Assembly (NCBI GenBank): GCA_045545295.1
Contig: JAZQAO010000036.1
Location: forward strand, 139,029 to 203,028
Origin: Clostridia bacterium
GTDB lineage: Bacteria; Bacillota; Clostridia; UMGS1883
Length of the DNA: 64,000 bases
Direction: 5' to 3'
A program made the position numbers and the translations under genes. The notes below the pieces were generated by a model. The model had not been told where the DNA came from, made no database searches, and was given only the letters and a program-made list of their open reading frames with translations. Shown here one piece after another: positions 2 to 39,895 of this stretch. Positions within the stretch are counted from its first letter, which is position 1. Every line of letters begins with the position of its first letter.

Positions 2-3000
2 AAGGGCGACCCGAACCTCAGAGTAATGGAAGACGGAAAAAACAACAAAGCTCTTTATGTTCCGGGTGATAACACGATAAACACACTAACATTTCCTCTT
101 GACGGACTTGAAGAGTTGTTTGTAATGAGCTTCAAACTTAAGTTTGAAGGCGGAAAAATCCCTCTGAGATTTACGTTTAATGACAAGGGAAACCAGGAAT
201 TTACTCCGTTTACGATAGATTCGAAAGGAAACATAGTTTTACATAACGGAAAGCTTGTCGGCGGAGTGAATGTGGGAAGATATACCGAAATCACCGTTAA
301 GTTCAACGCTCTCATAAAGCGTTACGATGTGATTGTTAACGGTCGTCTTGCGGCAAGCAACCACCTTTATACAGCAGATATTTCGGTTCCGACAACGCTT
401 ATTGTCAAAAGCTCTTTAGGTGAAGCGGATTCTGCACTTTATGTTGATGAGCTTGCTGTATATAACGGAACTGATGTCAGAAAGAATATCAAGTGGGGCT
501 CATACAACAGCGATATTCTTGAGTTTGCACCTGTTGATATGAAAAATCGTAAGCCTATGATTTTTGTTAACAACGATTTTAACACAAGAGGCAAGGCGTT
601 CAGCGGCATTAGTCCCTATAATAAGTCAAATGTCATTGAGTATATGCAGTATACTGAGGACAACGGATGTCTTCTTATGGACAAAACCTTAGCTGCAACA
701 GACCCCTTTATTGATATCGGGATTAAGGGTGCCGAAGCAATGCTCAACTTTGTACTTGAGGTTGATATTACAAGTGACGAGCTTGGTTCTACTCTGTACT
801 TATTTAATGTGAGAAGTGATACCACAGGCTGGGGACAGACATTCACAGTTTCGCCTGAAGGTGAAATCAAAAACCATCTCGGAACATCACTTGCAAAAAT
901 CGCAGAGGGTGAGTTTGTGCAGCTCGCAGCTGCATATAAGCTTGCACAGCAGACTTATGATGTATATGTAAATAAGAAAAAGGTACTTGAAAATGTACCG
1001 GTAGCAGCAAAGAATTTTGGCGTTCTTACAGATATCAGAATTCAGCAGATGCCCAATCAGGGTAACGGCAGATTTATTCTTGATAATCTGAGAGTTTACG
1101 AAGCAACCGAGCCGTATACCCTCACAGGGGAGGGAGAGGATCTGTATTCGGTTCTTCCTGACGACACAGACGATATCGCTAAATTAAGCGGTACGGTGGC
1201 ATTCCACGAGAATGCAAAATACCTTGTAGCAAAGAACCGCAAGACGGATATGCAGGCATACTCCTATCATGAGGGGAACTGTCTTATGGTTCCGGAAGAT
1301 GTATTCAGGATCGGTATGGGTCTTGGTGTTAAATATGATGAAAAAAGCGGCAGCATCTCTCTCGGCGCAGATATAAAAATGACGCTTGGTAAAACCGAGG
1401 CAACAGCACAGGGTAAGACTATTGAGCTTGATGCTGCGCCTGCCATAAAGAATGGCAAGGTATATCTTCCGGTAAAGTCAATAGTGGAAAAAGCACTTAG
1501 TAAACAGTATCTTCATCATAAAACAGGGCTTGTTGTTATTTCAAACACTCCCTTTAAGTACAGTGATGATGAAAGTGTGCTTAAAGCGCTTTCAACTTAT
1601 GTATTCTTCCCGCGTCTTTCTACTGATGAGATAATGGGACTTTATGAAAAGTCAGAATACAAAAACGTTCATCCCAGAATTATGGCAACGGCAGAGGATT
1701 TTGAAAGAATCAAAGAAATGTACAAAACCGATGCACGTGTTAAAGAATGGGTGGATAACGTTCTGGAAACTGCTGATAAGGCTCTTCCCACAACTCCCAA
1801 CGAAAGATGGTTTGATGCCGGAAACAAGCAGACACTTACCTACGTTCATATCGTGCTTGAAAGACTCACGTCGCTTTCATTTGCATGGAAGATAACAGGG
1901 GATACAAAGTATGCGGAGCGCGCATGGGTTGAAATGAAATCCGTTGCAGAGCTTCCTGACTGGAATCCGCAGCATTTCCTTGATGTAGGTGAAATGACCT
2001 ATGCTATGAGTATTGCTTACGACTGGTGCTACGATTTCCTTACAGAGGAACAACGTAAAATCACAGCCGATGCAATTCTCTATAACGGACTTGAAGCAGG
2101 CCGTGAACAGTATCAGGGCAGACCAATCGGTACAAACTACGTATTCCAGGCAATGAACTGGAACTCGGTATGTAACGGCGGTCTCATAGTTGGTGCTTGT
2201 GCAATATTTGACGAACACCCCGTTCAGGCTCGCTACACCATAAAAAACGGTCTTCGCAGTTTTGAGTATATGATACCTGAATTTGCTCCCTCCGGTGCAT
2301 GGGTAGAAGGTGTCGGTTACTGGGAATATACGGTCAAGTTTATGGGCTATATGATAGAGACTATGCAGAAAATACTTGGAACAGACTTTGATATGGCGCG
2401 TTACACCGGTATTGACAAAACAGCCGACTTTATATTAGGTATAAAAGGTAATGTGGGATATAACAACTTCCACGATGCAGGAGAAGGAAATGGTCTCAGC
2501 GTACAGCTTTTGTGGCTTGCAAGACACTTTAAGAGTTCTAAGATTGCCGATGCATATTTCTCAGTACTGGATATGCAGAATCTTAATGGCGGAATGTATG
2601 ACTGTTTGTGGTATGATCCAAGCCTTCTCGGTGACGGAAATGACAAATATCCTCTTGATGTAACAACCCCCGTGACGGAAACAGGTTCTATGCGTGAAAA
2701 CTGGGATGACCAGAACGGAATGTGGATTTCCTACAGTGGCGGTGCAAATCTAGTTAACCACTATCACCTTGACGAAGGTTCCTTTGTCCTTGATATGCTT
2801 GGCGAAAGATGGGCGCTCGATATGGGCGGTGGCGGATTCACCTATACTTACAGCGGCTCACGTAATGATATTTTCAGAGTGCGTCCCGAAAGTCATAACA
2901 CACTTGTAATTAACCCGGACGAATCTGCAGGACAGGAATTGACGGCATATTGCCCCATAATCCGTGCGGAAAGCAAGCCCAGGGGTGCAATTCAGGTCAT

Positions 3001-4126
3001 TGACCTTACAAGTGCATATTCTTCCGATGCTGATAAAGTACACCGTGGCTTTATGCTCAAGGATGACAGACGTACTGCAGTAATCCGTGACGAAATCGAG
3101 CTTCTTGAAAAGTCCGATGTTTACTGGTTTATGCACACGGAAGCAGAAGTAGAGCTTGTTTCATCCGATACTGCTATTCTTACAAAGAACGGCAAGAGGA
3201 TGCAGCTTAAGTTTATTGCAGAAAATGCAGAAGCAGCATTTACCGATACAAAGGTTGAGCCGTTCCCCACTTCACCTCAGATTGAGGGGCAGCCGGATAA
3301 CTCTCCTTATCAGCGAGTTGGAATCAAGCTTACAGGAGAAGGAGAAATCGCAGTATCTGTAAGAATAACGCCTGCTGAAGAATATTCAGCAGAAATTCCC
3401 TTCGAGTGCAGTGAAATTTCCGCTTGGACAATTCCTGACGGAGATATAACACCTCTTCCGGTGCATAAGGGAATATACGTTGACGGTCAGCTGATAAAGG
3501 GCTATAAGTCAAACGAAAACACTTATATACTGAAGTCTATCGACAAAAAAGCAAAAATTCCGGTTGTTACGATAGATGGCGGTGCATACGCAGTAGAAAA
3601 GATTTCAGAAGCGAAATCCTACGGCGAGAGCACAGTTTACAAACTTCTTGGAAATGGCGGAAAGTACACAACCGTCAAAGTGAATTTTGTTTATCAGGAG
3701 CTTGTACCCCTTCCTGATATAGAGGGAAGAATAAGACATATTCCTCTTGAACTTTATGCAAGCGCAAATCCTGAGAAGCATAATCCCGACAAGCACGTAA
3801 ACGATGATAATTTTGAAACCAAGTGGGCGGCAAGCGGTGTGCAAACACTGACCTTTGAATTCCACGAACCGAAAGTGATTGAAGCAATTGCGCTTAATAC
3901 TTCCCGTGCTGAAACGAGAAGCTACAAGTTCACAATCGAGGTTTCGGAAGACGGTGTAAATTATACCGAAATTTTCAAGGGCTCAACAAGAGTTGGCAAC
4001 AAAGGCTATGAAGTTATGGAAATTCCCTCTGTTACAACCAAGTACATACGCTACAAGGGTGACGGAAACAACGAAAACTCATGGAACACTATTAACGAGC
4101 TTGCCATCTTAGGCCCTGTACGCTGA
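2..4126 (+). CDS. Multidomain heparinase II/III-like polysaccharide lyase (5' end probably outside the window): LamG-like modules + Cu-amine-oxidase-N1-like stalk + heparinase II/III-like core + C-terminal F5/8 type C (discoidin) domain
   Basis: ORF track 26..4126. The frame has no stop back to nt 2, and Met26 has no signal peptide although the paralog at 12192 does. Motifs VHPRIMATAEDF, WNPQHFLDVGEM, NHYHLDEGSFVLDMLGERWALDMG and VRPESHNTLVINP are typical of the heparinase II/III family. KVYLPVKSIVEKAL resembles a Cu_amine_oxidN1 stalk. The tail DDNFETKWAA...INELAILG is discoidin-like. Confidence 0.75.
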   Translation, partial: KGDPNLRVMEDGKNNKALYVPGDNTINTLTFPLDGLEELFVMSFKLKFEGGKIPLRFTFNDKGNQEFTPFTIDSKGNIVLHNGKLVGGVNVGRYTEITVKFNALIKRYDVIVNGRLAASNHLYTADISVPTTLIVKSSLGEADSALYVDELAVYNGTDVRKNIKWGSYNSDILEFAPVDMKNRKPMIFVNNDFNTRGKAFSGISPYNKSNVIEYMQYTEDNGCLLMDKTLAATDPFIDIGIKGAEAMLNFVLEVDITSDELGSTLYLFNVRSDTTGWGQTFTVSPEGEIKNHLGTSLAKIAEGEFVQLAAAYKLAQQTYDVYVNKKKVLENVPVAAKNFGVLTDIRIQQMPNQGNGRFILDNLRVYEATEPYTLTGEGEDLYSVLPDDTDDIAKLSGTVAFHENAKYLVAKNRKTDMQAYSYHEGNCLMVPEDVFRIGMGLGVKYDEKSGSISLGADIKMTLGKTEATAQGKTIELDAAPAIKNGKVYLPVKSIVEKALSKQYLHHKTGLVVISNTPFKYSDDESVLKALSTYVFFPRLSTDEIMGLYEKSEYKNVHPRIMATAEDFERIKEMYKTDARVKEWVDNVLETADKALPTTPNERWFDAGNKQTLTYVHIVLERLTSLSFAWKITGDTKYAERAWVEMKSVAELPDWNPQHFLDVGEMTYAMSIAYDWCYDFLTEEQRKITADAILYNGLEAGREQYQGRPIGTNYVFQAMNWNSVCNGGLIVGACAIFDEHPVQARYTIKNGLRSFEYMIPEFAPSGAWVEGVGYWEYTVKFMGYMIETMQKILGTDFDMARYTGIDKTADFILGIKGNVGYNNFHDAGEGNGLSVQLLWLARHFKSSKIADAYFSVLDMQNLNGGMYDCLWYDPSLLGDGNDKYPLDVTTPVTETGSMRENWDDQNGMWISYSGGANLVNHYHLDEGSFVLDMLGERWALDMGGGGFTYTYSGSRNDIFRVRPESHNTLVINPDESAGQELTAYCPIIRAESKPRGAIQVIDLTSAYSSDADKVHRGFMLKDDRRTAVIRDEIELLEKSDVYWFMHTEAEVELVSSDTAILTKNGKRMQLKFIAENAEAAFTDTKVEPFPTSPQIEGQPDNSPYQRVGIKLTGEGEIAVSVRITPAEEYSAEIPFECSEISAWTIPDGDITPLPVHKGIYVDGQLIKGYKSNENTYILKSIDKKAKIPVVTIDGGAYAVEKISEAKSYGESTVYKLLGNGGKYTTVKVNFVYQELVPLPDIEGRIRHIPLELYASANPEKHNPDKHVNDDNFETKWAASGVQTLTFEFHEPKVIEAIALNTSRAETRSYKFTIEVSEDGVNYTEIFKGSTRVGNKGYEVMEIPSVTTKYIRYKGDGNNENSWNTINELAILGPVR

Positions 4127-4140: not shown

Positions 4141-5997
4141 ATGAAAAAGATAATTACATATTTACTGGTGCTTGTAATGTTGCTGGCATCATCCGCCTCT
4201 GTTTTGGCACAAACAACAATTTCAATTGTTAATCCTACAGGAGCAAGTGAAATATACGAGGGTGAAAGCCTGAATATCAAGGCAACTCTTTCGGAGAATT
4301 CTGCATACAAGGTTGCGTTTTACCTTAACGGAGATTGGGTAAGCACAGTTTATGCATCAGATACTCCTGAATGCGAAATTACAAACATTTGTGCAGGAAG
4401 TAACACAGTACGTGCCGATGCGCTCAGCGCATCGGGCACGGTGCTTGCAACAGATACCGTTACATTCAGCGTAAACGCAAATGAAGCACCTGTTGTCTCG
4501 GTAGCGGGACTTGACAGCGAAATTGATTTGTCTTTATCGGATACTGTATCTGCTTCTGTTACTGACAGTGAAGATAACTTCACCGAAGCGAAGGTTTTTC
4601 TTAACGGAATCGAGCTTGGAACTTATACGGAAACCAGCTTTGATATCGACATTTCGTCGGCAGCATCGGGAGAAAACGCTCTCGTAATAGAGGCGGTAGA
4701 TGCTTACGGCAAAAAAGGAATTTTTGAAAAGATTTTCACTGCTAATCAAGAGATTGCACAGACTCTTGTGGAGAATAATTTTGATGACTACACAAGCGGA
4801 ACCCCTGCGAAATTTACAAATTTTGTAACAAACAAGGGTGCAAGCTACAGTGCCGTAACCACAGAGGATGAAAGCTACGGAACAAGCCTTTGTCTTACAG
4901 CAAATACGATTGAGAATTCTCCTGACGTAGATGCTCATATCTATCTTGGTACAGATTCAGGCAAGCAGAAGTTTGTTGTAAAAACATCATATTATTTCCC
5001 CGGAAATGCCGACGGAAATTATGATGCAACTGCAACACTTTACTTCCGTGCGGGAAACGGCTCGTCAAGAGAACTTGTGGATTTTGACAAGAACGGAAAG
5101 CTTAAATGCTACGGTGAAGCAGGTATAAAGTCAACAACATACGACCTTAATACATGGTACGATATGGAGCTTTATATCGACACCCGAACAGGTATGTACG
5201 ATGTAATTCTCAACGGTACACCGGTTATTGAAGGATATACCAACGTACATATAAGAGACCTTGGAATTTCGGCATTCCGTTTCGGTATTTGTACAAGAAC
5301 AGGGCATAGCGGTGCACATCCGGCATCTGATGTAGGTGCAAAGGTGTATATGGATAACATATCTGTTGTTTCTATACTTGATGTGCCGAAAATTGAGAAA
5401 GTATATTCCGAAGGAAATACCGATACTGTTTCCGGTGGAGTGGGTGAAATTAAGGCAAAGCTTTCTGCGGTAATTGACGGAAGTGATATTTTGGAAAATG
5501 TTACTCTTATGAGTGAGTTTGGTGAAGTTAATATCACTGATGCAGTTTACGATTCTCAGAATTTAACCGTTAATTTTACAACAAATGCCGAAATTCAGCC
5601 CGGTGCAGATTACACACTTATTATTAAGGAAGGAACTAAAATGACAAGCACCCTTAAAACAGTGTGTGATATCCGCTGCGGATTTACTGCTGAAAATGGC
5701 GATTACAGCGTACCCGACGGAAAATTTGAATTTTCAGACGGGGAGATTACATTTAAAGGCTCGGTTGATAATAAGACATCACTGCCCCTTGAGGCAATTG
5801 CAGTTATGTATGTATGGCAGGAAAACAAGATTGTTTCGGCTTATACTACAGCAATAGTTGCGACAGAAGACAGAGCTACAGAATTTACTGTTACAGGAAA
5901 GCCCCTTGTAAAAGGCGAGAGAGCGAGCGTATATGTTTTTGATGCAGATACCCTTGAAATACCTGTAACAGTAAAAAACTATTCCTACAGTAATTAA
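4141..5997 (+). CDS. Secreted non-catalytic protein: signal peptide, Ig-like repeats and one LamG-like module
   Basis: RBS GGAGG precedes the ATG. N-terminus MKKIITYLLVLVMLLASSASVLAQ is a signal peptide. A beta-sandwich module ends in KVYMDNISVV. No catalytic motif was recognised. Confidence 0.6.
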   Translation: MKKIITYLLVLVMLLASSASVLAQTTISIVNPTGASEIYEGESLNIKATLSENSAYKVAFYLNGDWVSTVYASDTPECEITNICAGSNTVRADALSASGTVLATDTVTFSVNANEAPVVSVAGLDSEIDLSLSDTVSASVTDSEDNFTEAKVFLNGIELGTYTETSFDIDISSAASGENALVIEAVDAYGKKGIFEKIFTANQEIAQTLVENNFDDYTSGTPAKFTNFVTNKGASYSAVTTEDESYGTSLCLTANTIENSPDVDAHIYLGTDSGKQKFVVKTSYYFPGNADGNYDATATLYFRAGNGSSRELVDFDKNGKLKCYGEAGIKSTTYDLNTWYDMELYIDTRTGMYDVILNGTPVIEGYTNVHIRDLGISAFRFGICTRTGHSGAHPASDVGAKVYMDNISVVSILDVPKIEKVYSEGNTDTVSGGVGEIKAKLSAVIDGSDILENVTLMSEFGEVNITDAVYDSQNLTVNFTTNAEIQPGADYTLIIKEGTKMTSTLKTVCDIRCGFTAENGDYSVPDGKFEFSDGEITFKGSVDNKTSLPLEAIAVMYVWQENKIVSAYTTAIVATEDRATEFTVTGKPLVKGERASVYVFDADTLEIPVTVKNYSYSN

Positions 5998-6040
5998 ATT
6001 AATTTAATAAATAATTTTTAATTAAGAAAGGATGAAAAAA

Positions 6041-8119
6041 ATGGCAAAGACTAAAAAACTTTTATGTCTGGCAGTGGCAGTAGCGCTTGTTTCTTCGCTC
6101 TTCTGCTTGCCGGCAAGTGCTACCGCTAACTGGTCACATATCTTTGATATGTCAGCAATGATGGGTGCAGGTAGTTACGGCAGACACGGTTCAACAACTA
6201 CTACAGATTATAATGTAGCAGGAGTATATGGAAAGAGTACTGATGGTGTGTTGAAGCTCAACGCAACTGCAGAAACTGCGGACTACTATCTTGGATTGTC
6301 AGGAAGTAAAACGCTATATGCTTTTACTGCAAACTCCAAGACAGTAATTTCGTATGATGTAGCATTCGATTCATTGGATGCTACCGGAAACAATCACGTT
6401 TCCCTTATGCAGTTTGCCAATGCAACCGGTGGACAGATTGCTCAACTTAATTTAGTACAGATTACAAAGGGCGGTCAGGTAAATCCTTTGGACAAAGGTT
6501 ACATAGCGACTTCTGTAAAACCGGGTTGCTGGAATAACATTACTGCAGTTATTGACCTTGGCTCTGATTCAAAAACATATACTTGTACTATTTATCTCAA
6601 CGGGGTATCCGTACAAAGCACTACAGGAACACTTTCAACTGAAACTGCTTATGTAAGAGCATTGAGAATTTGTGACCGTACAGTTGGAGGCACAGTATAT
6701 ATCGACAATCTGAAGTTTGCTTCATATCCCGCTGCAGATACAGTTAACCTTAATTTCGTATCTCAAGCAGCAACTACTGATGCAGCTAAAGTCGCTGTGA
6801 ATACTGCAAACAATACTGTTGCTATTACCGATGCAGATTTGAAAGTTGCAGAATTTAAGAATATTACAACAGGCTTTGTTGTTCTTGGTGAAGATGGTGC
6901 GGTAGCAGCAGATGATGCTTCTATTTTAGATTCTGAAATTTATGCAGTATATGTAAATGATGTTAACTCATACTATGCACCCTACACAATTTCTGTAATT
7001 CCTCCTGTAATTACAGGTAGCACAACTGTATATCAGGAAATTATCAACAATGATACAAAAGAAATCAGAGTTGTTGATATGCCGAAACTTACAGTTGGCA
7101 CATTCAAGGATAATGTAACAAATACAGGTACACTGTCTATAACTAAAAACGGTGAGGCTGCTGCTGACAGTGATTTACTTAAGGATTGCACAGTTAACCT
7201 TACACTTGGCAGTTACTATGACTATACTTACACAGTTGTTACCGAGCGCAGCTATCTTCTTAAGAAAGAAACCTTTGACGGAACATTTACAACAAGAACA
7301 AGCGGTAACGGAACTGTTTATTCAGGAAATGGTTTCGTTTGGGCAGGAAATACAAACGGAATCAGCGGAGTAACATTTGGTGAACTGACAGGTCTCGGCG
7401 GCAAAGATGCAGACGATTCAAGTTTTGGCATTACTGTTAACGGAGCAAGTGCAGATCAAGAAATCTTTACTTATATTTCAAATCCGTATATAAACAGCAG
7501 CAAGGTAATCAACACCACTCATACTCTTGAAACAAAGATTTATCTGGATGATGTTGATGCGGCAGATTTCAGCGCAATTGATTTCTGTATTAACGGAAGA
7601 AACCTTCTTAAAATTTCCCCTGACGGAAGCATCAAGCACACAGACGGTACAGTTGCTACCGGTGTGAAGTGGACGGCAGGTGAATGGATTCCCGTTGCAG
7701 TAACATATCACAAGGCTACAAATATAATTGATGTTTATGTAGGCGGCAAAAAGATAGCTTGCACATGGAATCCTGCTCCTAACGGTTCAGATATTCGTTT
7801 CCGTCCGTGGGTAAAGAAGGATGCAGTTTTTACATTTGCAATGGACGATGTTAAAATCTACACAGACAGTCTTGCAAAAGTAAGATATGACGTTGACTCT
7901 GCAAACCGTACAGTTGTTGCAGATGCAACAGAAAACCTTGCAACTCTTCCCATTATTGCAGAGTATGACAGTACAGGAAAACTTCTTGGTGTAACTCTCG
8001 GAAAGAGTGAAAAAACAATTTCAAGAAATTACGCAGCAGATAGCAAGGTAAAGGTTATCCTTATTAACAGTCTTGCAGAGCTTGAAGCTATAACAGACGT
8101 ATACGAAGCAGTTAGATAA
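6041..8119 (+). CDS. Secreted LamG-repeat protein, paralog of the N-terminal two thirds of 8629..12171
   Basis: The ATG at 6041 is better spaced from RBS AGAAAGGA than the ATG at 6032. Signal peptide MAKTKKLLCLAVAVALVSSLFCLPASA. Modules end in TVYIDNLKFASY and FAMDDVKIYTD. Long colinear similarity to the next gene, e.g. ETFDGTFTTRTSGNGTVYSGN versus ETFDGTYSQRTSGNGKIYVGN. Confidence 0.65.
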   Translation: MAKTKKLLCLAVAVALVSSLFCLPASATANWSHIFDMSAMMGAGSYGRHGSTTTTDYNVAGVYGKSTDGVLKLNATAETADYYLGLSGSKTLYAFTANSKTVISYDVAFDSLDATGNNHVSLMQFANATGGQIAQLNLVQITKGGQVNPLDKGYIATSVKPGCWNNITAVIDLGSDSKTYTCTIYLNGVSVQSTTGTLSTETAYVRALRICDRTVGGTVYIDNLKFASYPAADTVNLNFVSQAATTDAAKVAVNTANNTVAITDADLKVAEFKNITTGFVVLGEDGAVAADDASILDSEIYAVYVNDVNSYYAPYTISVIPPVITGSTTVYQEIINNDTKEIRVVDMPKLTVGTFKDNVTNTGTLSITKNGEAAADSDLLKDCTVNLTLGSYYDYTYTVVTERSYLLKKETFDGTFTTRTSGNGTVYSGNGFVWAGNTNGISGVTFGELTGLGGKDADDSSFGITVNGASADQEIFTYISNPYINSSKVINTTHTLETKIYLDDVDAADFSAIDFCINGRNLLKISPDGSIKHTDGTVATGVKWTAGEWIPVAVTYHKATNIIDVYVGGKKIACTWNPAPNGSDIRFRPWVKKDAVFTFAMDDVKIYTDSLAKVRYDVDSANRTVVADATENLATLPIIAEYDSTGKLLGVTLGKSEKTISRNYAADSKVKVILINSLAELEAITDVYEAVR

Positions 8120-8260: not shown

Positions 8261-8590
8261 TTTGCTACAAACAAACTTCGCCTCTCGGTCGTCGCAACTA
8301 ACGCTTTAGTCGTATTTGCTTTGCAAATATCGACGCAGTCGCTTGGTTGCTCCTCTCCCATTCAGAGCACGCTTACGCTACCACTCTGAACGGGGCCCGT
8401 TATGTAGGGTCTCCCAAAAAGTCCGAAGACTTTTTGGGAAAGAGACAAAACAAGATTGCAACCATAGTTTTCCTGCGGAAAACGTAATTGCAAACCTTGT
8501 TTTGGCGAGCCTTCGGGTAACCTGACAATGCCTGCACACAGGCATTGTCAGCTCAGTTTGTTCGTTCTGAAGCATTTTTTTCCTATCCCC
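8261..8590 (+). repeat. B-family intergenic repeat, long form (B1, 330 bp) filled with perfect hairpins
   Basis: Termini TTTGCTACAAACAAACTTCGCCTCTCGG ... CCTTCGGGTAACC ... CAGTTTGTTCGTTCTGAAGCATTTTTTTCCTATCCCC match the short copies. The interior contains at least 6 hairpins read directly (see findings). Confidence 0.7.
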
Positions 8591-24185: not shown

Positions 24186-24200
24186 ATTTTGGAGGAAAAT

Positions 24201-32700: not shown

Positions 32701-32886
32701 ATTCTGGAAATGAAGTTCTTCGGTAACAGAAACAATACCTTCGGAGCACTCCATAACTGCGGTAGAAGCACATGGTACGGCCCTAATTATTGGTATTCCA
32801 CCGAAGACTCCTGGTGTTATGAATATAATTTGAAAAATACAGGTATACTTAAGAGCCCCGTTTTGAAAATGCTAAAAAGGAGATAA
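29794..32886 (+). CDS. Large glycoside hydrolase, GH106-like (possible alpha-L-rhamnosidase); family assignment tentative
   Basis: N-terminus YRGAPFWAWNCELEEDELLRQIEYLKEMGMGGFHMHTRSG resembles the FWxWN...GxGG start of GH106 and related enzymes. 1030 aa with no signal peptide. Confidence 0.4.
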   Translation: MLYKKNNTQKLDKKLFKNPTSEYRGAPFWAWNCELEEDELLRQIEYLKEMGMGGFHMHTRSGMETTYLSDEFMKLVKSCVKKAKKEDMLAWLYDEDRWPSGAAGGYVTKDPKYRQRNLLFTVNKRDDDLEKDDAIEKGAPYFIGAYDIHLDKNGFMTSYKMLKEGEEATGICRYAYVLAEEPSGWFNGEAYLDTLNPEAVNKFIEITHETYKKEVGEEFGKTIPAMFTDEPHFAKKETLSFAESDADVCLPWTPDFDKTYFDSYGISLTEHLPELFWDLADGKVSKVRYYYHDHVCERFTTAYSDQYGKWCRDNGIYMTGHMWEENTLRRQTAAIGEAMRAYRNYGLPGIDMLCNFREYDTVKQAQSATRQFGYEGVLSELYGVTNWDFDFRGHKFQGDWQAAMGVTARVHHLSWVSMKGAAKRDYPASINYQSPWYKEYSYIEDHFARLGTVLTRGKSKVNVGVIHPVESYWINWGPSENTADVRNQLDKNFADVIEWLLFGTIDFDFISESCLPDLCTDVSDRVTVGQMSYSAIVVPECITLRKTTVDMIDKFIQKGGKVIFMGACPKYIDVEENSDIERIYNSAIRIPFSKNPLLDALCEERDIEIRDEFGEMTDQFFYQMREDNDCSWLFVANARPETMNIFLSYNGAERAVNTVIKIKGELDLELYDTLTGDIKEIPYIHKNGFTEIDYAFYANDSLLLRLTKAAGEPAVAYQQPVDVFGCIDCKHKVEYTREEENVCVLDLAEYALDDGELQPTEEIFRIDRDLRQDLGWSLADGQDVQPWVIEKEKITHFVTLKFTFNSEEEIEGTYFCAEEVSSLNLNAEEIKLEDCGYFVDKSIRKYSMPKIRKGENILIARVPFGKRISLETCYLIGDFDASVAGCEITLKKPSDKIAFGSITNQGMPFYGGNLTYRMEVEITEDCDVLINSAKYIGALQKVYFDGEEKGNIAFEPYTLMLENVKKGKHILEMKFFGNRNNTFGALHNCGRSTWYGPNYWYSTEDSWCYEYNLKNTGILKSPVLKMLKRR

Positions 32887-32892: not shown

Positions 32893-35355
32893 ATGCTATA
32901 TGATAGAACACAGGAAAAATGCGTTTACGGACATTTTAATACTGACGAGAAAGCTTCTTATACACTGACGGACAGACAGGCGCTTAAATCACCGTGGTAC
33001 TACGTCTACAGTAACAGGAAAATTCTGCTGTATGTTGACCAGAACGGTCCGGTAAAAGTACAGTATCAGCCCCCTAACGGAATTCTCGTGATAAAACGCG
33101 AAATGGGCGAAAATCAGAGTAAATGGCAGGTATGGGTACAGTCTGACGACCTAAATGACGGCATTGCGGTCAGTAATTTTGGTGCTCCTGACCTTCGCTA
33201 CGGCAAAAAGACAAATATGGAGGCAAAGTGGACTCCTGAAAAAGCGATTTATACAGTAGAGCACAACAATGCCGATATTATTACCGAGATTTTTGTGCCC
33301 TCAGACAAAGCAACCGTCTGTATGAAAACCACAGTTGTAAATAAAAGTGAAAAGAAAATGAATTTCAATGTACTGCCGTCGATATTTCCTTATGTAAATG
33401 TTCCGCAGATGGTGGCGTGGGACTTACCTGAATGGTATCTTTCTACAACTGTTAAACGTACCGGTGAAATGCTTACTTTCCGCGGTCAGATGAAAGACCC
33501 CGAAATGAAACCGGATGGCGACCGCAGTGTCACATTTAATGTTGATTATGACGAAAATGCACAGATAGAGCTTGATATGGCAGAATTTTGCGGATCGGGA
33601 AATTTCTTCTCTCCTGACAAGGTTACAGGAGGTGAAGAACTCTCGCTTAAAATGAGCGAGGCTGACGGAACTGGTTTCGGAGGATATCAGGCGGTGTATG
33701 CGTCAAAATACAGCTTTACTCTTGAAGCAGGTGAGAAAAAAACTCTGACTCAGGTTTTAACTATTCAGGAGGATTATCACTATAACGATGAGGAAAATCT
33801 GTTTGACAAGGCATATTTTGACGAAAAGCTCTATCAGAAAAGAGTAAAATCCACCAGGGACTTTTATGAAGAATTATTCAGTAAACGTACCGTTAAAACA
33901 CAAAATAAGTTATATGACAATTTTATAAATTACTTCACTCCCCTTGAAATGTTCTGGGTAGGCTCCCTCGACCGTGGATGGCCGTCGTCAATGCGCGGAA
34001 TCCGTGATGCAAGTCAGGATTTTATGGGACTTTTACACCTTGACCCGGCATGGACGCGGGAGATAATACTCGATATGTTCCTTCATCAGCAAAAAGACGG
34101 CTGGATGCCAAGGCAGATAAGCACAGTTTCAAGGACTGCACCTCACGATATGCGATACTACTGTGACGGTGGTGCATTCCTGCTTGAATTAATTCACGAA
34201 TATATGACCTTCACCCGTGATACTTCCATTCTGGAAGAAAAAGTTATGTGGCTTGACAGTGATGAAGAATCAACTGTTCTTGAGCATATAGTCCGCTGTA
34301 CAGAGTTTTATCTTGAAGACAAAAACATCGGAGAACATGGTCTTTGCAAGGTGTGGTACGGAGACTGGTGGGACCCTATGGATAAAATCGGTATGGAAGG
34401 ACGGGGTGAGTCCGTCACTGTAACTGCGCAGATGGTACTTAACCTTAAAAACCTTTCTGATATGTATAATTGGTTGTACGAAAACGGAAAGGTTGATAAA
34501 GTTTATCTGGAACTTTCTGAAAAATATCTTGAAATCCGCAAGACAATGATAGATAATATGCAAAAGCATGCCTATAACTCTGCAGGATTTTTTAACGGAT
34601 ATTTTAACGATAACGGTAAATGGCTTCTCAGTGAAAAAGACCCTGACGGCGAAAAAAGAGTGTATCTTGTGTCAAATGCCTGGGCACTAATTGCGGATTG
34701 TGCAACGGAAGAAATGAAAAAAAGTGTACTGGACAATATCGAAAATGAATGTCTTGGTGTAACAGGATATAACACTAACAGCAAGGGATTCCCTGTGTAC
34801 ATTAATAAAGCAGGCAGAAAAGGTAACGGTTCAAGTCCCGGTGCAAGCTCGTACAACCATGCCCAGAGCTTTTTTGTGCGTGCCTGCTGTGAGTGTGGTG
34901 ACGCAGAAAGAGCATATAACGCGACAAGATATATTCTTCCGATAGAGGAAGAATATCATCCTGTGGAAAAAACTTATGCTCCGCCCTATGCTATAGCAAA
35001 CTGTTACAGTACAAGCGCCAGATTTCCTCACAGGGTAGGTTTTCAGTTCCTTTCGGGAACGGTATCGTATGTGCTCCGAACCGTGTATAATTTCTTTTTT
35101 GGTATTACATTCTGCTATGATGGTCTGCTTCTTAAACCGTGTCTTTCCAAAGAATTCGGTGACTGCGAAGTAAAGTTTACATACCTTGGAAACAGTTTCA
35201 CGGTATATTACAAAAAAACAGACAGCGCTGACAAAAAAGTTATGCTTAACGGTAGTGTATGGAGAACAGAAATTAATGAAAACAGCGGAAAGCAGACAGC
35301 CTTTTTCCCGGATACGGATATCAAGAAAGAAAACACAATAATAGTTGAATATTAA
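32893..35355 (+). CDS. (alpha/alpha)6-barrel glycoside hydrolase or phosphorylase related to GH94 (GT36-like)
   Basis: DGWMPRQIS, WYGDWWDPMDKIGMEGRGESV (compare the DWND...G.GESV block of cellobiose phosphorylases) and SYNHAQSFFVRA. Confidence 0.45.
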   Translation: MLYDRTQEKCVYGHFNTDEKASYTLTDRQALKSPWYYVYSNRKILLYVDQNGPVKVQYQPPNGILVIKREMGENQSKWQVWVQSDDLNDGIAVSNFGAPDLRYGKKTNMEAKWTPEKAIYTVEHNNADIITEIFVPSDKATVCMKTTVVNKSEKKMNFNVLPSIFPYVNVPQMVAWDLPEWYLSTTVKRTGEMLTFRGQMKDPEMKPDGDRSVTFNVDYDENAQIELDMAEFCGSGNFFSPDKVTGGEELSLKMSEADGTGFGGYQAVYASKYSFTLEAGEKKTLTQVLTIQEDYHYNDEENLFDKAYFDEKLYQKRVKSTRDFYEELFSKRTVKTQNKLYDNFINYFTPLEMFWVGSLDRGWPSSMRGIRDASQDFMGLLHLDPAWTREIILDMFLHQQKDGWMPRQISTVSRTAPHDMRYYCDGGAFLLELIHEYMTFTRDTSILEEKVMWLDSDEESTVLEHIVRCTEFYLEDKNIGEHGLCKVWYGDWWDPMDKIGMEGRGESVTVTAQMVLNLKNLSDMYNWLYENGKVDKVYLELSEKYLEIRKTMIDNMQKHAYNSAGFFNGYFNDNGKWLLSEKDPDGEKRVYLVSNAWALIADCATEEMKKSVLDNIENECLGVTGYNTNSKGFPVYINKAGRKGNGSSPGASSYNHAQSFFVRACCECGDAERAYNATRYILPIEEEYHPVEKTYAPPYAIANCYSTSARFPHRVGFQFLSGTVSYVLRTVYNFFFGITFCYDGLLLKPCLSKEFGDCEVKFTYLGNSFTVYYKKTDSADKKVMLNGSVWRTEINENSGKQTAFFPDTDIKKENTIIVEY

Positions 35356-35374: not shown

Positions 35375-37579
35375 ATGTATAAACTTAACTACAACAAAAT
35401 CCCTGCAGAGTGGATTAACGGTCTCCCATTAGGAAATGGAAGACTTGCGGTAATGTACTGGGGTGACGGAAATAGAGACATCCTCTCACTTAACCACGAG
35501 CGTCTCTGGAGTGCAAAATATAAAGGTAAAGAGCCTGAAGTAGTTTATGACAAGCTTCCTATGTTAAGAGATTTTCTTAAGAAAAGAGACTACTTCCGTG
35601 CTACAGTTTTGGCAAATGTTTTCTTTGGTGGCATAGGTGGGGACAGCGGGATTTATCCGGGTAGAATTGATAGCTTCATTCCAGCGGGTAATCTTGTGTT
35701 TGAGCACAGTAAAGAGTTTTCTGACTGTAAAAGTGAGCTTGACATAATAAGCGGAATTGCTGATATTAAACGTGAAAAAAATACGCAAATTAAAATGTTT
35801 TGCGACAGTAATGACGGAAACGTTATGGCTTTGTGGCAAAGCGACAGCGGTATAAGCGGAAAAATGTATTTTGAAAGAACAGCTGACCCTGACGGAAAGT
35901 ATTCTGTAAGCTATACAGGTGGTGCTATAGAATTTATCTGTAGTTTCAGCTGGAATTCAAGCTATGCCGTAAAAGTAAAAATTTGTACTGACGGTATTGT
36001 AAATGCGCAGGACGAAGGAATATATATAGAAAATGCAAAAAAAATTGTTGCAGCTACTAATGTAGTCCTTACAGAAACTGATGAAAGAGATTTCAATCTT
36101 GATTTTGACAATGTTTATAAGGCTCACTCAAAGACCTTCAGCGAATATATGTCAAGAATGAGCTTTTCAATAGAGTCAGAGGATAAAAATATCCCTACAG
36201 ATGAACGCATCAAAAAGATAAGAGCCGGGGAGAGAGATAATAAACTTCAGGAACTTTATTTCCACTACGGAAGGTATCTTATGGCATCATCCTGTATTTG
36301 CGGTACACTTCCTCCAAATCTTCAGGGTAAATGGAACGCAGAAATTAAGCCGCCGTGGCAAAGTGATTATCACCTTGATATCAATCTTCAGATGAACGAA
36401 TGGATGATAGAAGGCGCAAACTTCTCTGAATTTGCACTTCCTCTTGCAGATTTCCTTGTTTCAATGATTCCGGGCGGAAGAAAAGCGGCTAAAAACGTAT
36501 ACGGATGCCGTGGTATATGGCTTTTCCACGGAGCAGACATTTGGGGCGAGCCGACACCGGAATCCTTTGGATATGCTGTATGGGTAGGTTCTGCAGCTTG
36601 GATTGCACAGCCACTCTGGCAGCATTATGTGTATACAGGTGATAAAGATTATCTTAAAAATAAGGCATATAAATTCTTCAAAGAGGTTGCCCTTTTCTAC
36701 GAGGACTTCCTTGAAGAGGATGAAGACGGGGTTATGCAGTTAATGCCCAGCCAGTCCCCTGAAAACAGATTCAAGGGTGCGGGTGCAGTGGTTACTGTTG
36801 GTATATGTACATCAAGCGCTATTGACGTTCAGCTTGCTTATGATGCATTTGGATATGCGATTAATTCTGCACGGATTCTAGGTATTGATGAGGAAGAAGC
36901 TGAGAAGTGGGAAGAACTCAGAAGCAAGCTCCCGCCTTTCAGAATAGGCAGTGACGGAAGACTTATGGAGTGGAACGAGGAATTTGAGGAAGAACAGCCT
37001 GGGCACAAGCATCTTTCTCACCTTTACGGACTTTATCCTTCAGATATTTTCACTCCGGAAGCACGAAAGGCCGAGTATGAAGCTGCAATAAAATCATTTG
37101 AATTCAGAATGGCTAATGAAAGCGGATATACCGGTTGGAGCAGAGCCTGGATTTCGAATATTTATGCAAGAATCGGAAACAAAGAAGGTTTCTATAATCA
37201 GGTGGAAGGTCTTTTAAAGGATTTTGCAACAGAAAGCCTGCTTGATATTCACCCTGACCCCGTAAGACCGGGGGTAGGTCCTGATATATTCCAGATAGAC
37301 GGAAACTTTGGTATGGTGTCGGCTGTAATCGAAGCTCTTTGCGGATATTTTGACGGCAAGGTGCATTTCCTGCGTGCGCTTCCGGACCAGTGGAAAAACG
37401 GACATATCAGCGGTGTAAAGCTTCCCGGCGGACATACAGTTTCCATTGAGTGGAAAAATAGCCTTGTTACAAAACTTACAGTTGCTATGGGATTCAGTGA
37501 AAGTCTGACAGCTGTTATAAACGGAAACGAGACTGTAATAACAGGTAAAATCGGTGAAATTATTGAAATTAATATATAA
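35375..37579 (+). CDS. GH95 alpha-L-fucosidase
   Basis: PAEWINGLPLGNGRLAVMYWG, LQGKWNAEIKPPWQSDYHLDINLQMNEW and FQIDGNFG are hallmark GH95 blocks. The ATG at 35375 is preferred over the GTG at 35366. Confidence 0.8.
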   Translation: MYKLNYNKIPAEWINGLPLGNGRLAVMYWGDGNRDILSLNHERLWSAKYKGKEPEVVYDKLPMLRDFLKKRDYFRATVLANVFFGGIGGDSGIYPGRIDSFIPAGNLVFEHSKEFSDCKSELDIISGIADIKREKNTQIKMFCDSNDGNVMALWQSDSGISGKMYFERTADPDGKYSVSYTGGAIEFICSFSWNSSYAVKVKICTDGIVNAQDEGIYIENAKKIVAATNVVLTETDERDFNLDFDNVYKAHSKTFSEYMSRMSFSIESEDKNIPTDERIKKIRAGERDNKLQELYFHYGRYLMASSCICGTLPPNLQGKWNAEIKPPWQSDYHLDINLQMNEWMIEGANFSEFALPLADFLVSMIPGGRKAAKNVYGCRGIWLFHGADIWGEPTPESFGYAVWVGSAAWIAQPLWQHYVYTGDKDYLKNKAYKFFKEVALFYEDFLEEDEDGVMQLMPSQSPENRFKGAGAVVTVGICTSSAIDVQLAYDAFGYAINSARILGIDEEEAEKWEELRSKLPPFRIGSDGRLMEWNEEFEEEQPGHKHLSHLYGLYPSDIFTPEARKAEYEAAIKSFEFRMANESGYTGWSRAWISNIYARIGNKEGFYNQVEGLLKDFATESLLDIHPDPVRPGVGPDIFQIDGNFGMVSAVIEALCGYFDGKVHFLRALPDQWKNGHISGVKLPGGHTVSIEWKNSLVTKLTVAMGFSESLTAVINGNETVITGKIGEIIEINI

Positions 37580-38824
37580 GAGGTGTAATGTTATACGTTA
37601 TAACGAAGCAAAAGAAATCTATGCCCGTCTGGGTGTAAATGCAGAAAAAGCAATTGAGGTAGTTAAGAATTTCCCTATTTCCATGCACTGCTGGCAGGGA
37701 GATGACGTAATCGGCTTTGACAGCATCGGTTCTCTTACAGGTGGTATCCAGACAACCGGTAACTATCCCGGTCGTGCTACTACGCCCGAAGAATTAATGG
37801 CGGATATTGACAAGACAATGAGCCTTATTCCCGGTAAAAAGAAAATTAATGTTCATGCCTGCTATGCAGTATTTAACGGAAATAAAGCAGACAGAGATGC
37901 CCTTAAGCCTGAACACTTCAAGGCTTGGGTAGACTTTGCAAAGGAGAGAGGAATGGGACTTGACTTTAACCCCACATTCTTCTCACATGCAATGATAAAG
38001 GATAACCTTACTCTTTTTCCCCTGATGAAGAAGTGAGAAAGTTCTGGGTAGAACACGGCAAAAGATGTGTTGAAATATCACAGTACTTTGCAGAAGAAAC
38101 AGGTATTCCCTGTGTAATGAATATATGGATTCCCGACGGCTACAAGGATATTCCTGCAGACAGACTCGGACCGAGAGAAAGATTCAAGAAATCACTTGAC
38201 GAAATCCTTTCAATTCCTTACGACAAGGAAAAAGTGTATGTATGCCTTGAATCAAAGGTGTTCGGTATTGGCATGGAATCCTACACAGTAGGAAGTGCAG
38301 AATTCTGCCTTAACTATGTAAATCAGAAGGGTATCACACCCCTTATGGATAACGGTCATTATCATCCCACAGAAGTGGTATCCGATAAGATTGCAGCAAT
38401 GCTTCCCTTCCACGAAAAGATTGCTCTTCACGTAACACGTGGCGTAAGATGGGACAGTGACCACGTAGTTCTGTTTGATGACGAAACAAAGGAAATTGCC
38501 AAGGAAATCGTACACCACGATGCCCTTGACCGAGTGTTCATTGCAACAGACTACTTTGATGCATCAATAAACAGAATTTCAGCTTGGGTAACAGGTATGA
38601 GAAGTGTGCAGAAAGCACTGCTTAATGCGCTCCTTCAGCCTGTTGATACTCTTAAATCACTTCAGAATGAGGGAAGACTTACAGAGCTTATAGTGCTTCA
38701 GGAAGAACTCAAGACAGCACCCTTTGGTGATGTATGGGAAGAATATCTTAATCACGAAAATGTAAGCGCAAACTACATAGATGAAGTATTAAAGTATGAG
38801 AAAGAAGTTCTTTCTAGACGATAA
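37554..38824 (+). pseudogene. rhaA: L-rhamnose isomerase split into two frames (apparent 1-nt loss in a T5C4 tract at 38014-38022)
   Basis: ORFs 37554..38036 and 38033..38824 together are colinear with RhaA: PISMHCWQGDDV, GGIQTTGNYPG, NPTFFSH | FWVEHGKRC, MNIWIPDGYKD, HYHPTEVVSDKI, RWDSDHVV. Adding one base in the tract gives TLFSPDEEVRKFW. The N-terminal start is also ambiguous: the ATG at 37588 after AAGAGG is in a different frame. Confidence 0.8.
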
Positions 38825-38859
38825 TTTGGGTACAGATTTATATGAATAGAGGCATTAGT

Positions 38860-38993: not shown

Positions 38994-39049
38994 TTTTTTC
39001 CAATGTTTCCCGAATGCGGAATTAAGAATACGGAATGAGGAATTATATA

Positions 39050-39895
39050 ATGAATTTACCATTTAATATAGACTTAACAGGCAAGGTGTGTGTTGTAACA
39101 GGTGCAGGCGGTGTGCTTTGTTCTCTTTTTGCAAAGGCACTTGCATCTACCGGTGCAAAGGTAGCACTTTTAGACCTTAATATTGATGCCGCAAACGCTT
39201 TCGCAAAGGAAATCTGTGACGAGGGCGGCATAGCAAAGGGATATATTTGTAATGTGCTTGAAACTGAAAGCATACAGAAAGCACACGAAGAAATCGTAAA
39301 GGATTTCGGTACCTGTGACATTCTCATCAACGGTGCAGGTGGTAACAACCCCAAGGCAACTACTGATGACGAATACTTTACTCCCGAAGATATAGGCAAC
39401 GTAAAGACATTCTTCGACCTTGACAAGTCAGGTGTTGAGTTTGTGTTTAACCTTAACTTTCTGGGAACACTTTTGCCCACACAGGTTTTTGCAAAGGATA
39501 TGCTCGATAAGGAAGATGCAAGCATCATCAACATTTCAAGTATGAATGCGTACACACCTCTTACAAAAATTCCTGCATACAGCGGTGCAAAGGCTGCAAT
39601 TTCAAACTTTACACAGTGGCTTGCAGTACACTTTTCAAAGACAAATATCCGCTGCAACGCAATAGCACCGGGATTCTTTGTAACAAAGCAGAATGAAAAG
39701 CTTCTCTTTAACGAAGACGGAACTCCCACAGCAAGAACAGGCAAAATCCTTGCTGCAACACCTATGGACCGCTTCGGAAAAGCAGAGGAACTTATAGGAA
39801 CACTTCTTTTCCTTGTACATAAAGAGGCTTCGAGCTTTGTTAACGGTGTTGTAATCCCCGTAGACGGTGGATTCAGTGCATATAGCGGTGTATAA
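39050..39895 (+). CDS. uxuB: SDR-family oxidoreductase, D-mannonate oxidoreductase-like (YjmF/UxuB type)
   Basis: TGAGGVLC (Rossmann TGxxGxxG), NGAGGNNP and YSGAKAA (catalytic YxxxK). It sits directly after the uxuA remnant, as in uxuA-uxuB pairs. The ATG at 39050 follows GAGGA. Confidence 0.6.
   Translation: MNLPFNIDLTGKVCVVTGAGGVLCSLFAKALASTGAKVALLDLNIDAANAFAKEICDEGGIAKGYICNVLETESIQKAHEEIVKDFGTCDILINGAGGNNPKATTDDEYFTPEDIGNVKTFFDLDKSGVEFVFNLNFLGTLLPTQVFAKDMLDKEDASIINISSMNAYTPLTKIPAYSGAKAAISNFTQWLAVHFSKTNIRCNAIAPGFFVTKQNEKLLFNEDGTPTARTGKILAATPMDRFGKAEELIGTLLFLVHKEASSFVNGVVIPVDGGFSAYSGV

Follow-up and report, generated by a model that had tools for sequence, protein, structure and literature searches.

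What does a long run of carbohydrate-active enzyme (CAZyme) genes in an uncultured gut bacterium digest, and is the locus as unusual as it looks when read alone? The genes lie in a 64,000-nucleotide (nt) stretch of contig JAZQAO010000036.1 (assembly GCA_045545295.1), referred to here as the window, where open reading frames (ORFs) follow one another on the + strand without a break from base 2 to base 39895 (ORF listing of the window). The host is an uncultured gut bacterium of the Clostridia/Oscillospiraceae. An initial annotation, made from the letters alone, read the run as a Gram-positive polysaccharide-utilisation locus (PUL) with two heparinase II/III-like lyases and took the lack of a transporter and regulator as a sign of oddity. 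Family calls from Pfam, NCBIfam and PDB sequence searches support the PUL reading, with CAZymes, importer and regulator all present once the upstream genes are included. The window probably holds the downstream three-quarters of a Gram-positive PUL of about 26 co-directional genes and ~52 kb, accompanied by a divergent AraC regulator.

Sequence matches place both of the large secreted proteins in polysaccharide lyase family PL35. Lyase 1 matches the PL35 crystal structures 8KHW, 8KHV and 9O3Q with E values of 4.4e-69, 3e-67 and 9.3e-50, and lyase 2 matches the same entries with 3.7e-66, 5.1e-59 and 6.3e-46; the next-best lyase structures (heparinase, oligo-alginate lyase and heparinase II) reach just 1e-4 to 1e-8 with either protein. 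The DUF4962 plus Hepar_II_III_C architecture, the heparinase II/III-like pairing of an (alpha/alpha)6 toroid with a beta-sandwich, lies above the Pfam cut-offs in both, and profile searches keep both large proteins inside the polysaccharide lyase families. The catalytic residues of GAGase VII are the neutraliser Asn187 together with Tyr241 and His397 (PMC12088678). Equivalents are kept in both window proteins (HMMER alignments to 8KHW, whose chain numbering equals the paper numbering minus 14): the Asn of MNWNS, the Tyr of GYWEY and the first His of NHYHLD in lyase 1 or of NHRQFD in lyase 2. Essential His and Asp residues near Mn2+ have been reported for PL35 (PMC12088678); in lyase 2, Gln replaces the second His of the HxH motif, which reads HTHLD in 8KHW. 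Together, the structural matches and the kept residues make the two heparinase II/III-like proteins of the initial annotation genuine lyases, now placed in PL35.

The two lyases are paralogues (38% identity over 922 residues, partly N-terminal to the catalytic module), and in each the catalytic module is preceded by ~540 residues of LamG-like and Cu_amine_oxidN1 modules. In lyase 1 (Pfam; LamG_3 in the N-terminal part), the PL35 module spans approximately residues 540-1135 and is followed by a C-terminal CBM32/F5_F8 type C domain. The structures closest to this CBM32 in the PDB search bind uronate polymers (AlyQ, YeCBM32 and the CBM32s of alginate lyases). The gene for lyase 1 is open from base 2 and truncated by the window edge. 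In L001, a 99%-identical metagenome-assembled genome (MAG) contig labelled 'Clostridia bacterium', its true start lies 159 nt further upstream, beyond the window, and the signal peptide MKRLLALLLCIMMLPAVSVTAEE is visible there.

The missing transporter and regulator are an artefact of the same window edge. It is literally true, as first stated, that domain scans of the window proteins find no sulfatase, SusC/D, ATP-binding cassette (ABC) or phosphotransferase system (PTS) domain and no regulator within 2-39895; as a sign of oddity the statement does not hold, because both a transporter and a regulator sit directly upstream in contigs carrying the same genes. In L001 (at 99% identity), L002 and L023-L025 (ENA contigs reached via a cluster member of the upstream GH95), the 12-15 kb directly left of window base 1 encode a divergent AraC-family regulator, solute-binding proteins, ABC permeases, a second GH95 enzyme and two further proteins (Table 1). 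The 520-aa (amino acid) binding protein is nearest to Smon0123 (5XS8 and 5GUB, E 4.4e-40), then to the binders of alginate oligosaccharides AlgQ1 and AlgQ2; Smon0123 binds unsaturated glycosaminoglycan (GAG) disaccharides for import in Streptobacillus (PMC5430744). The 904-aa secreted protein between this group and lyase 1 has no PDB sequence match. Even within the window transport-type proteins occur, of the EamA and YgjV families. CAZymes, importer and regulator, whose joint presence marks a Gram-positive PUL, are found together only if the 15 kb upstream of the window are counted, and the locus is not a Bacteroidota Sus-like PUL: neither the 36 scanned window proteins nor the upstream genes contain the domains of a SusC/SusD pair.

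Within the window the block comprises 19 real genes, with a spacing of -26 to +41 nt (start and gap analysis) broken only by ~509 nt ahead of the esterase gene and 210 nt ahead of the last gene (39035). The tight co-directional arrangement described earlier is therefore upheld, and the count of 20 falls by one, since genes 18 and 19 are a single split rhaA. The listed enzyme families, apart from GH106, were also borne out, and three genes had been overlooked: those for an Amidohydro_2 protein, an EamA transporter and a YgjV-like protein. At its 3' end the locus is bounded by an IS3-type insertion sequence (IS). The 73-kb ENA contig behind L023 stops at about window position 41.1 kb, that is, at the IS3 repeat (coordinate arithmetic). 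At the left end of the locus, beyond the AraC regulator, ENA contigs carry defence-type genes, SIR2_2 (851 aa) and SLFN_AlbA_2 (383 aa), at L023 68-4231.

Table 1. Genes of the locus and features at its 3' boundary, with coordinates in the window; upstream genes are listed in their order in same-gene contigs
Feature	Position	Strand	Description
Upstream gene 1			Divergent AraC-family regulator, 753 aa
Upstream gene 2			SBP_bac_1 binding protein, 514 aa in L023; 491 aa as called in L024; two ORFs in L025
Upstream gene 3			Second GH95, 826 aa
Upstream gene 4			Solute-binding protein, 520 aa
Upstream genes 5-6			Two ABC permeases (BPD_transp_1)
Upstream gene 7			SLH protein, 556 aa, three SLH repeats
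Upstream gene 8			Secreted protein without recognisable domains, 904 aa; followed by lyase 1
PL35 lyase 1	2..4126	+	Secreted, multi-modular; full protein 1419 aa, 5' end outside the window
618-aa secreted protein	4141..5997	+	Ig-like/CBM-like modules; signal-peptide-like N-terminus
695-aa secreted protein	6032..8119	+	Paralogue of the non-catalytic part of the esterase protein
CE20 (SASA-type) O-acetylesterase fusion	8629..12171	+	~690 non-catalytic LamG-like residues, then CE20 domain; secreted
PL35 lyase 2	12192..16508	+	Secreted, 1438 aa, C-terminal LamG_3
GH88 unsaturated glucuronyl hydrolase	16501..17628	+	Pfam 58.9 bits; PDB 1VD5 (Bacillus sp. GL1 UGL) 3.5e-69
Amidohydro_2-family metal hydrolase	17616..18401	+	Pfam PF04909, 93.8 bits; overlaps the GH88 gene
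Divergent GH20	18417..20852	+	GH20 catalytic (65.4 bits) and GH20b domains; cytoplasmic
EamA/DMT-superfamily membrane transporter	20866..21750	+	Pfam EamA, two repeats; hydrophobic N-terminus
GH2-like glycosidase	21765..24185	+	GH2 Ig and TIM-barrel, without N-terminal sugar-binding domain; cytoplasmic
YgjV-family inner-membrane protein	24189..24713	+	Pfam PF10688, 55.7 bits
Alpha/beta-hydrolase esterase, S9/BD-FAE type	24717..25469	+	Peptidase_S9 1.4e-20, BD-FAE 2.2e-16; cytoplasmic
GH2 glycosidase, nearest GH2_20	25511..28291	+	Pfam GH2_N; PDB 8U01 2.2e-38; BT4151 model 231 bits
GH43 with C-terminal F5/8 type C (CBM32-like) domain	28310..29770	+	Pfam GH43 1e-24, F5_F8_type_C 4e-08; cytoplasmic
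1030-aa glycosidase-like protein	29794..32886	+	Distant GH106 relative; cytoplasmic
GH94-like beta-glycoside phosphorylase (predicted)	32893..35355	+	Pfam GH94 catalytic domain 129.5 bits; PDB 4ZLE (cellobionic acid phosphorylase) 2.2e-39
GH95 alpha-L-fucosidase or alpha-L-galactosidase	35375..37579	+	GH95 catalytic domain 2.5e-130; cytoplasmic
rhaA (L-rhamnose isomerase), disrupted	37554..38824	+	Two ORFs match RhaA profile positions 6-146 and 153-417
SDR-type D-mannonate oxidoreductase (UxuB-like)	39035..39895	+	NCBIfam NF006132, 452.9 bits against a cut-off of 281
IS3-type insertion sequence	40168..41282	-	orfA 41019-41282, orfB/rve 40168-41022; Pfam rve and HTH_21
tRNA gene	41450..41523	-	Rfam RF00005, 67.3 bits; adjoins the IS element, outside the system

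Five proteins of the window block, as first proposed, have signal-peptide-like N-termini, that of lyase 1 lying outside the window; the other proteins of the block lack secreted-type N-termini. The 618-aa protein matches Big_7 and, weakly, a Sialidase-like carbohydrate-binding module (CBM), CBM6 and Big_5; searches detected no catalytic domain and no PDB sequence match in it, and it is a putative surface glycan-binding protein. The 695-aa protein, which has no Pfam or PDB match, is related to the N-terminal 673 residues of the esterase protein (40% identity, E 4e-145, BLASTP) and is likewise a putative binding protein. It is strain-variable: window 6124-6970, covering its first ~300 residues, has no nucleotide match in L001, where the flanks are 97-99% identical, and the gene is missing altogether from the 86%-identical relative L002, which suggests fast turnover of this surface binding module.

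The esterase fusion carries a SASA domain (2.8e-18, 66.8 bits) and matches 9H4U (Fl8CE20_II, identified as a CE20 carbohydrate esterase) at 3.4e-40 and 7KMM, which we take to be CE20 as well, at 5.2e-27; its N-terminal part has no PDB sequence match. Its most likely start is ATG 8629 rather than TTG 8545, with AAGGAAAGG upstream and a signal peptide beginning MTKMKKLL. The SASA-type O-acetylesterase of the initial annotation is accordingly assigned, by domain and structure match, to CE20 as a predicted extracellular acetylesterase. The gap ahead of its gene contains a 221-nt insertion (window 8288-8508) that is missing from L001. The insertion has a very stable predicted fold (-92 kcal/mol over 228 nt, z = -7.6, 0/200 shuffles as good) and no Rfam match, and motifs flanking it recur near 63.4 kb (63388-63489); it may represent a structured RNA or else a small palindromic element that is repeated.

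Among the cytoplasmic enzymes, the GH88, GH20, GH43, GH94-like, GH95 and alpha/beta-hydrolase assignments made earlier were all confirmed by Pfam, NCBIfam or PDB matches. The GH88 protein keeps the positions of Asp88 and Asp149 (HDIGF, IIIDC) in the alignment to 1VD5, presumably the essential aspartates of the Bacillus GL1 unsaturated glucuronyl hydrolase (UGL), and its best matches include streptococcal GAG-disaccharide hydrolases. The adjoining Amidohydro_2 protein possibly catalyses a lactonase or isomerase-type step. In the GH20 protein, an HMGHDE (H-x-G-x-D-E) motif is seen on inspection of the translation. The Asp-Glu pair of GH20 enzymes serves substrate-assisted catalysis and needs a 2-acetamido substrate. 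The best PDB matches of the window protein, 8BAL and 9FYL (1e-15), fall in cluster GH20:19.1, which was studied in the lacto-N-biosidase/LacNAc-ase discovery paper, and the protein is a putative beta-N-acetylhexosaminidase or disaccharide-releasing 'biosidase'.

Both GH2 proteins belong to the family named for them and resemble beta-galactosidases of the GH2_20 type more than enzymes specific to pentoses. The first (21765-24185) matches 6ED1 at 1e-17, and its C-terminal half scores 210 bits with the BT4151 exo-beta-1,4-galactosidase model, far under the cut-off. The second has its best match in 8U01, which is assigned to GH2_20, a subfamily of beta-galactosidases on decorated substrates (PMC12243196). 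Beta-glucuronidase activity was considered for these enzymes and is disfavoured by this match. Between them lie the YgjV-family protein, a putative small-solute transporter, and the S9/BD-FAE esterase, a probable deacylase of imported oligosaccharides. The GH43 protein matches 4QQS at 1.2e-15, an entry whose paper names alpha-L-arabinofuranosidase activity in its title. The 1030-aa protein falls below the family threshold: it scores 24.1 bits with Pfam GH106 against a cut-off of 29, scores 60.9 bits (E 5.9e-17) with the NCBIfam BT4145 rhamnosidase model against a cut-off of 1300, and has no PDB sequence match. By these scores it is only a distant relative of the GH106 alpha-L-rhamnosidases, and the earlier GH106-like call stands in that sense alone.

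The GH94-like protein, a predicted beta-glycoside phosphorylase, keeps the catalytic Asp (GDWWDPM, the Asp472 equivalent) and the YNHA His of 4ZLE; we take Asp472 to be the catalytic residue and the His to lie at the phosphate site. The equivalents of Arg609 and Lys613 also align, with a 3-residue gap between them. This pair and the best match to cellobionic acid phosphorylase favour a dedicated beta-glucosyl-uronate phosphorylase. That idea is weakened by the homologues of 65-67% identity in two other species of Clostridia (L027 and L028), which stand alone among housekeeping genes and once beside GT2 glycosyltransferases. The clade comprises 174 database clusters at E<=1e-40; the best 120 share 55-98% identity and are nearly all ~800-840 aa long, and its named members come from uncultured Clostridia. 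This distribution hints at a general or endogenous role on beta-glucosides. The GH95 enzyme matches 2RDY (4.5e-99) and also 8ZBV, 7KMQ and 4UFC; its orthologue in the relative L026 has 734 aa, in agreement with the ATG at 35375.

The two catabolic genes at the end of the locus differ in condition. The proposed rhamnose gene does belong to the RhaA family, but it is not intact in this strain: compared with the intact gene in L026 (L026:15308-16156), its ATG has become ATA at 37593, behind a preserved GAGGTG ribosome-binding site, and a single C is lost near 38016, which leaves two ORFs. It is either a decaying pseudogene or an assembly error. The inference of rhamnose as a component is weaker as a result, because rhaA is doubly damaged and 'GH106' is only a distant relative. 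The proposed mannonate gene fares better, as a D-mannonate oxidoreductase above the curated cut-off; it is the sole short-chain dehydrogenase/reductase (SDR) of the locus and scores 453 bits as UxuB-type against 131 bits as KduD.

Syntenic loci were found only in L001 (99%), in L002/L026 (86%, 'uncultured Oscillospiraceae') and in ENA contigs. In the 86% relative, the first lyase shares 86% protein and 77% nucleotide identity with that of the window, and gene order is kept from the lyases through GH95. The same relative (L026 1-16157) has four genes that the window lacks; they encode two esterases, of the SASA (250 aa) and GDSL (240 aa) types, an isomerase like RpiB/LacAB and a protein of 193 aa. 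Accessory gene content thus varies between close relatives. A further 18, more distant PL35 loci occur in Clostridia, Ruminococcus, Paenibacillus, Acutalibacteraceae and Armatimonadota and share with the locus only GH88, a UxuB/KduD-like SDR or GH95. The conserved partners of Firmicute PL35 loci were considered as a clue to the substrate and dropped, these three recurring only sporadically. A metagenome scan with the upstream GH95 returned relatives at 23-24% identity only.

From family memberships, catalytic motifs, secreted or cytoplasmic N-termini and gene order, we infer the activities and the order of steps set out here; the overall scheme of deacetylation and lyase cleavage, ABC import, GH88 action and exo-trimming is well supported. 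Surface proteins rich in LamG, Ig and CBM modules (the 618-aa, 695-aa, SLH and 904-aa proteins) would bind an O-acetylated polysaccharide with 4-linked glucuronic acid (GlcA), and the CE20 fusion would strip its acetyl groups outside the cell. Beta-elimination by both PL35 lyases would break the backbone and create new non-reducing ends that carry 4,5-unsaturated uronate, and the upstream ABC system, one of whose binding proteins is Smon0123/AlgQ-like, would import the unsaturated oligosaccharides. The cytoplasmic GH88 would take off the unsaturated uronate. Exo-trimming could then release fucose or L-galactose through the two GH95 and galactose through the two GH2. The GH20 would free beta-linked N-acetylhexosamine (HexNAc) or a disaccharide ending in HexNAc, the GH43 a pentose or some other residue, the distant GH106 relative perhaps rhamnose, and the GH94-like protein beta-glucose by phosphorolysis. 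The S9 esterase would remove residual acyl groups in the cytoplasm. Any glucuronate released may enter the isomerase pathway via the mannonate oxidoreductase. Lytic cleavage outside and trimming inside, as originally envisaged, fits an extracellular acetylesterase and lyases with cytoplasmic GH88 and exo-glycosidases.

The substrate itself can be named with something short of an even chance of being right: a GlcA-HexNAc, GAG-like polymer with acetyl groups and fucose or galactose decorations, either a bacterial capsule or exopolysaccharide or a host mucosal glycoconjugate. GlcA-HexNAc chemistry is proposed because of four independent components, namely PL35, GH88, the Smon0123-like binding protein and a GH20 that needs a 2-acetamido group. 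Side chains and acylation beyond those of plain GAGs are proposed because of the two GH95, the two GH2, GH43, the GH106-like protein, the two esterases and the SASA and GDSL esterases in the relative. Several observations weigh against the explanation as a whole. The GH95, GH43, GH106-like, GH2_20-like, CE20 and rhaA genes equally resemble plant pectin/xyloglucan side-chain toolkits. Identity of the PL35 modules to any characterised enzyme is only ~35-40%, and their nearest database relatives outside the species reach 43-51%. The bulk of the family, single-module proteins of ~620 aa from Bacteroidales, Verrucomicrobiota, Armatimonadota and Planctomycetes, stands at 34-37%. Because these identities are low, lyase specificity cannot be transferred. 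No ABC ATPase gene occurs in the stretch examined, and kduI/kduD, dhuI/dhuD, kdgK and kdgA, needed for unsaturated uronate, are not in the locus. The GH94-like clade, moreover, occurs outside PULs, so this protein may not be substrate-specific.

Three other explanations draw on much of the same evidence. Every characterised PL35 enzyme found (the GAGases, BcPL35 and VvPL35) has GAGs as substrates, one GAGase also degrading alginate, which favours a host GAG locus: PL35 would act on unsulfated or desulfated forms of hyaluronan, chondroitin or heparosan, GH88, GH20 and GH2 would finish the products, and GH95, GH2, GH20 and CE20 would additionally work on nearby glycans of mucin or proteoglycans. 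The absence of sulfatases agrees with this reading and is not anomalous for a PL35 locus, because VvPL35 (the founding member, from Victivallis vadensis) and BcPL35 (from Bacteroides caccae) prefer unsulfated chondroitin. The GAG-related matches of GH88, the nearness of the binding protein to Smon0123 and the Asp-Glu pair retained by GH20 agree with it, and some CE20 clades are tied to O-acetyl sialate and host glycans. GAG breakdown, however, does not need two GH95, GH43, GH106-like and GH94-like proteins, several esterases or rhaA. Sialidase, GH29, GH89 and GH109 are absent from the locus, record titles trace several related PL35 loci to metagenomes of the rumen or the herbivore gut, and the identity to characterised PL35 enzymes is low. 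A host GAG locus is considered unlikely. Rumen origin, including goat rumen and other rumen MAGs among the relatives, instead speaks for a plant acidic heteroglycan (of arabinogalactan-protein or gum arabic type, rhamnogalacturonan-II (RG-II)-like pectic side chains or seed mucilage), in which the lyases would cut at GlcA and the cytoplasmic set would remove fucose or L-galactose, galactose, rhamnose and arabinose.

GH43, GH95, the GH106 relative, the GH2_20-like enzyme and CE20 belong to families that act on the side chains of pectin and xyloglucan; NCBIfam matches lead to the B. thetaiotaomicron BT4145 and BT4151 models, CE20 clades are active on xylan, xyloglucan, pectin and RG-II, and rhaA and uxuB are present. 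A plant substrate nevertheless leaves the HexNAc-dependent GH20 without a target in wall polysaccharides, and no plant polymer is a substrate of the characterised PL35 enzymes found. The locus has no GH28, GH78, GH127, PL1, PL9 or PL11, this strain carries a broken rhaA, and the GH106 assignment lies under threshold. A plant heteroglycan is considered somewhat improbable. Plant glycosylinositol phosphoceramide head groups were also considered and dropped, since the cytoplasmic GH88 could not reach a lipid-bound product. The sporadic sharing of GH88, UxuB/KduD-like SDR or GH95 among distant loci, the extra SASA, GDSL, RpiB-like and 193-aa genes of the 86% relative, the occurrence of the GH94-like clade outside PULs and the IS element at the locus end would all suit an accreted CAZyme island, with a PL35/GH88 core joined to unrelated exo-glycosidase genes for several glycans. 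Against this, the close spacing with overlapping stop and start codons nearly throughout argues for co-transcription, only one regulator and one ABC system were found for 26 genes, and the order from the lyases through GH95 is kept in the relative; accretion seems quite improbable. The GlcA-HexNAc polymer with acetyl and fucose or galactose decorations remains the preferred substrate. A distinct proposal about the lyases, held as a possibility that falls clearly short of probable, is that they may act on an O-acetylated, fucose/galactose-decorated GlcA heteropolysaccharide, such as a bacterial exopolysaccharide, a capsule or a plant gum, that is neither GAG nor alginate.

Downstream of the IS element and tRNA gene, window 42050-63268 contains a second, mixed-strand sugar-related cluster. 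It includes two AraC regulators (46863-47657, PocR-type, and 61269-62054), an EamA transporter, an amidohydrolase, a sub-threshold neutral-ceramidase-like protein (44389-45732), a fucose-isomerase-C-like protein and a pair of nearly identical paralogues (57146-59104 and 59202-61199). For nine proteins of the cluster, the PDB sequence search gave no match at E 1e-3, and 7/9 of these are also without a Pfam family.

The characterised PL35 lyases found come from Bacteroides, Spirosoma and Victivallis, none from Firmicutes. The locus places PL35 in large multi-modular surface proteins of uncultured gut Clostridia, where it is coupled with an ABC importer and with genes for fucosidases, galactosidases and a hexosaminidase. 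Knowledge of the substrate would establish what a large, uncharacterised PL35 clade acts on and which nutrient niche an uncultured Oscillospiraceae lineage occupies. If the substrate were a non-GAG heteropolysaccharide, PL35 would gain a new substrate class; the GH106-like 1030-aa protein might then represent a new glycosidase family, and the ~3000 aa of unannotated surface modules might be new CBMs.

In the paper library searched, no characterised PUL matching the locus was found, and no paper there combines PL35 with GH88, GH95 and GH106. Several described systems share parts of its plan. The RG-I/RG-II PULs of Bacteroides thetaiotaomicron (BT4145 GH106, BT4151 GH2, GH95 and GH43) use the same exo-glycosidase families to take galactose and L-sugars off an acidic glycan of complex structure. 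The window matches to these models, however, lie far under equivalog cut-offs, and those PULs employ GH28, PL1, PL9 or PL11 and many RG-II-specific families absent from the locus, and lack the combination of PL35, GH88 and GH20. Gram-positive systems for xanthan and gellan resemble the locus in logic, and the best PDB match of the window GH88 is the Bacillus GL1 UGL. The Ruminococcaceae UCG-13 xanthan locus and the Bacillus sp. GL1 gellan/xanthan pathway reportedly act on an acetylated GlcA exopolysaccharide with an extracellular lyase and esterase, then with GH88 and exo-glycosidases or a GH94 phosphorylase. They are said to rely on PL8 or other lyases and on GH5, GH38 or GH78, without GH95 or GH20.

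The GAG clusters of Streptobacillus moniliformis and streptococci (lyase, UGL, Smon0123-dependent ABC system or PTS, and DhuD/DhuI; PMC5430744) likewise pair an extracellular lyase with the uptake of unsaturated oligosaccharides and with a GH88 in the cytoplasm. The likeness of the 520-aa binding protein to Smon0123 is a family-level match, not orthology. The lyase of these clusters reportedly belongs to PL8, whereas the locus has PL35, lacks dhuD, dhuI, kdgK and kdgA and carries a large extra set of exo-glycosidases and esterases. Of the parts of a classical GAG cluster, the lyase, UGL and a Smon0123-like binding protein are thus present, and KduI/DhuI, KdgK, KdgA and sulfatase are absent. 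At the level of single enzymes, the PL35 GAGases II, III and VII of Spirosoma fluviale and Bacteroides intestinalis (PMC12088678, PMC11262172) have the same fold, family and Asn/Tyr/His residues as the window lyases. They are single modules of ~610 aa, whereas the window lyases have 1419 and 1438 aa with LamG-like, Cu_amine_oxidN1 and CBM32 or LamG modules, and lyase 2 differs further in having Gln where the HxH motif has its second His.

PUL25 of Bacteroides caccae (BcPL35, BcGH88, GH109 and a GH154-type dehydratase, acting on chondroitin; PMC12269599) also combines PL35 as keystone endo-lyase with GH88 and a hexosaminidase. It acts on an unsulfated backbone, and 9O3Q matches both window lyases with E values of 1e-46 to 1e-50. 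PUL25 is a Sus-type Bacteroidota system with single-module periplasmic or surface enzymes, whereas the locus is Gram-positive, with ABC import, AraC regulation and lyases of ~1400 aa. In the locus, GH20 takes the place of GH109, no GH154-type protein is present, and two GH95, two GH2, GH43, GH106-like, GH94-like and CE20 proteins are added. Once the window edge is considered, the locus is an ordinary Gram-positive PUL built from standard parts, without mechanistic surprise.

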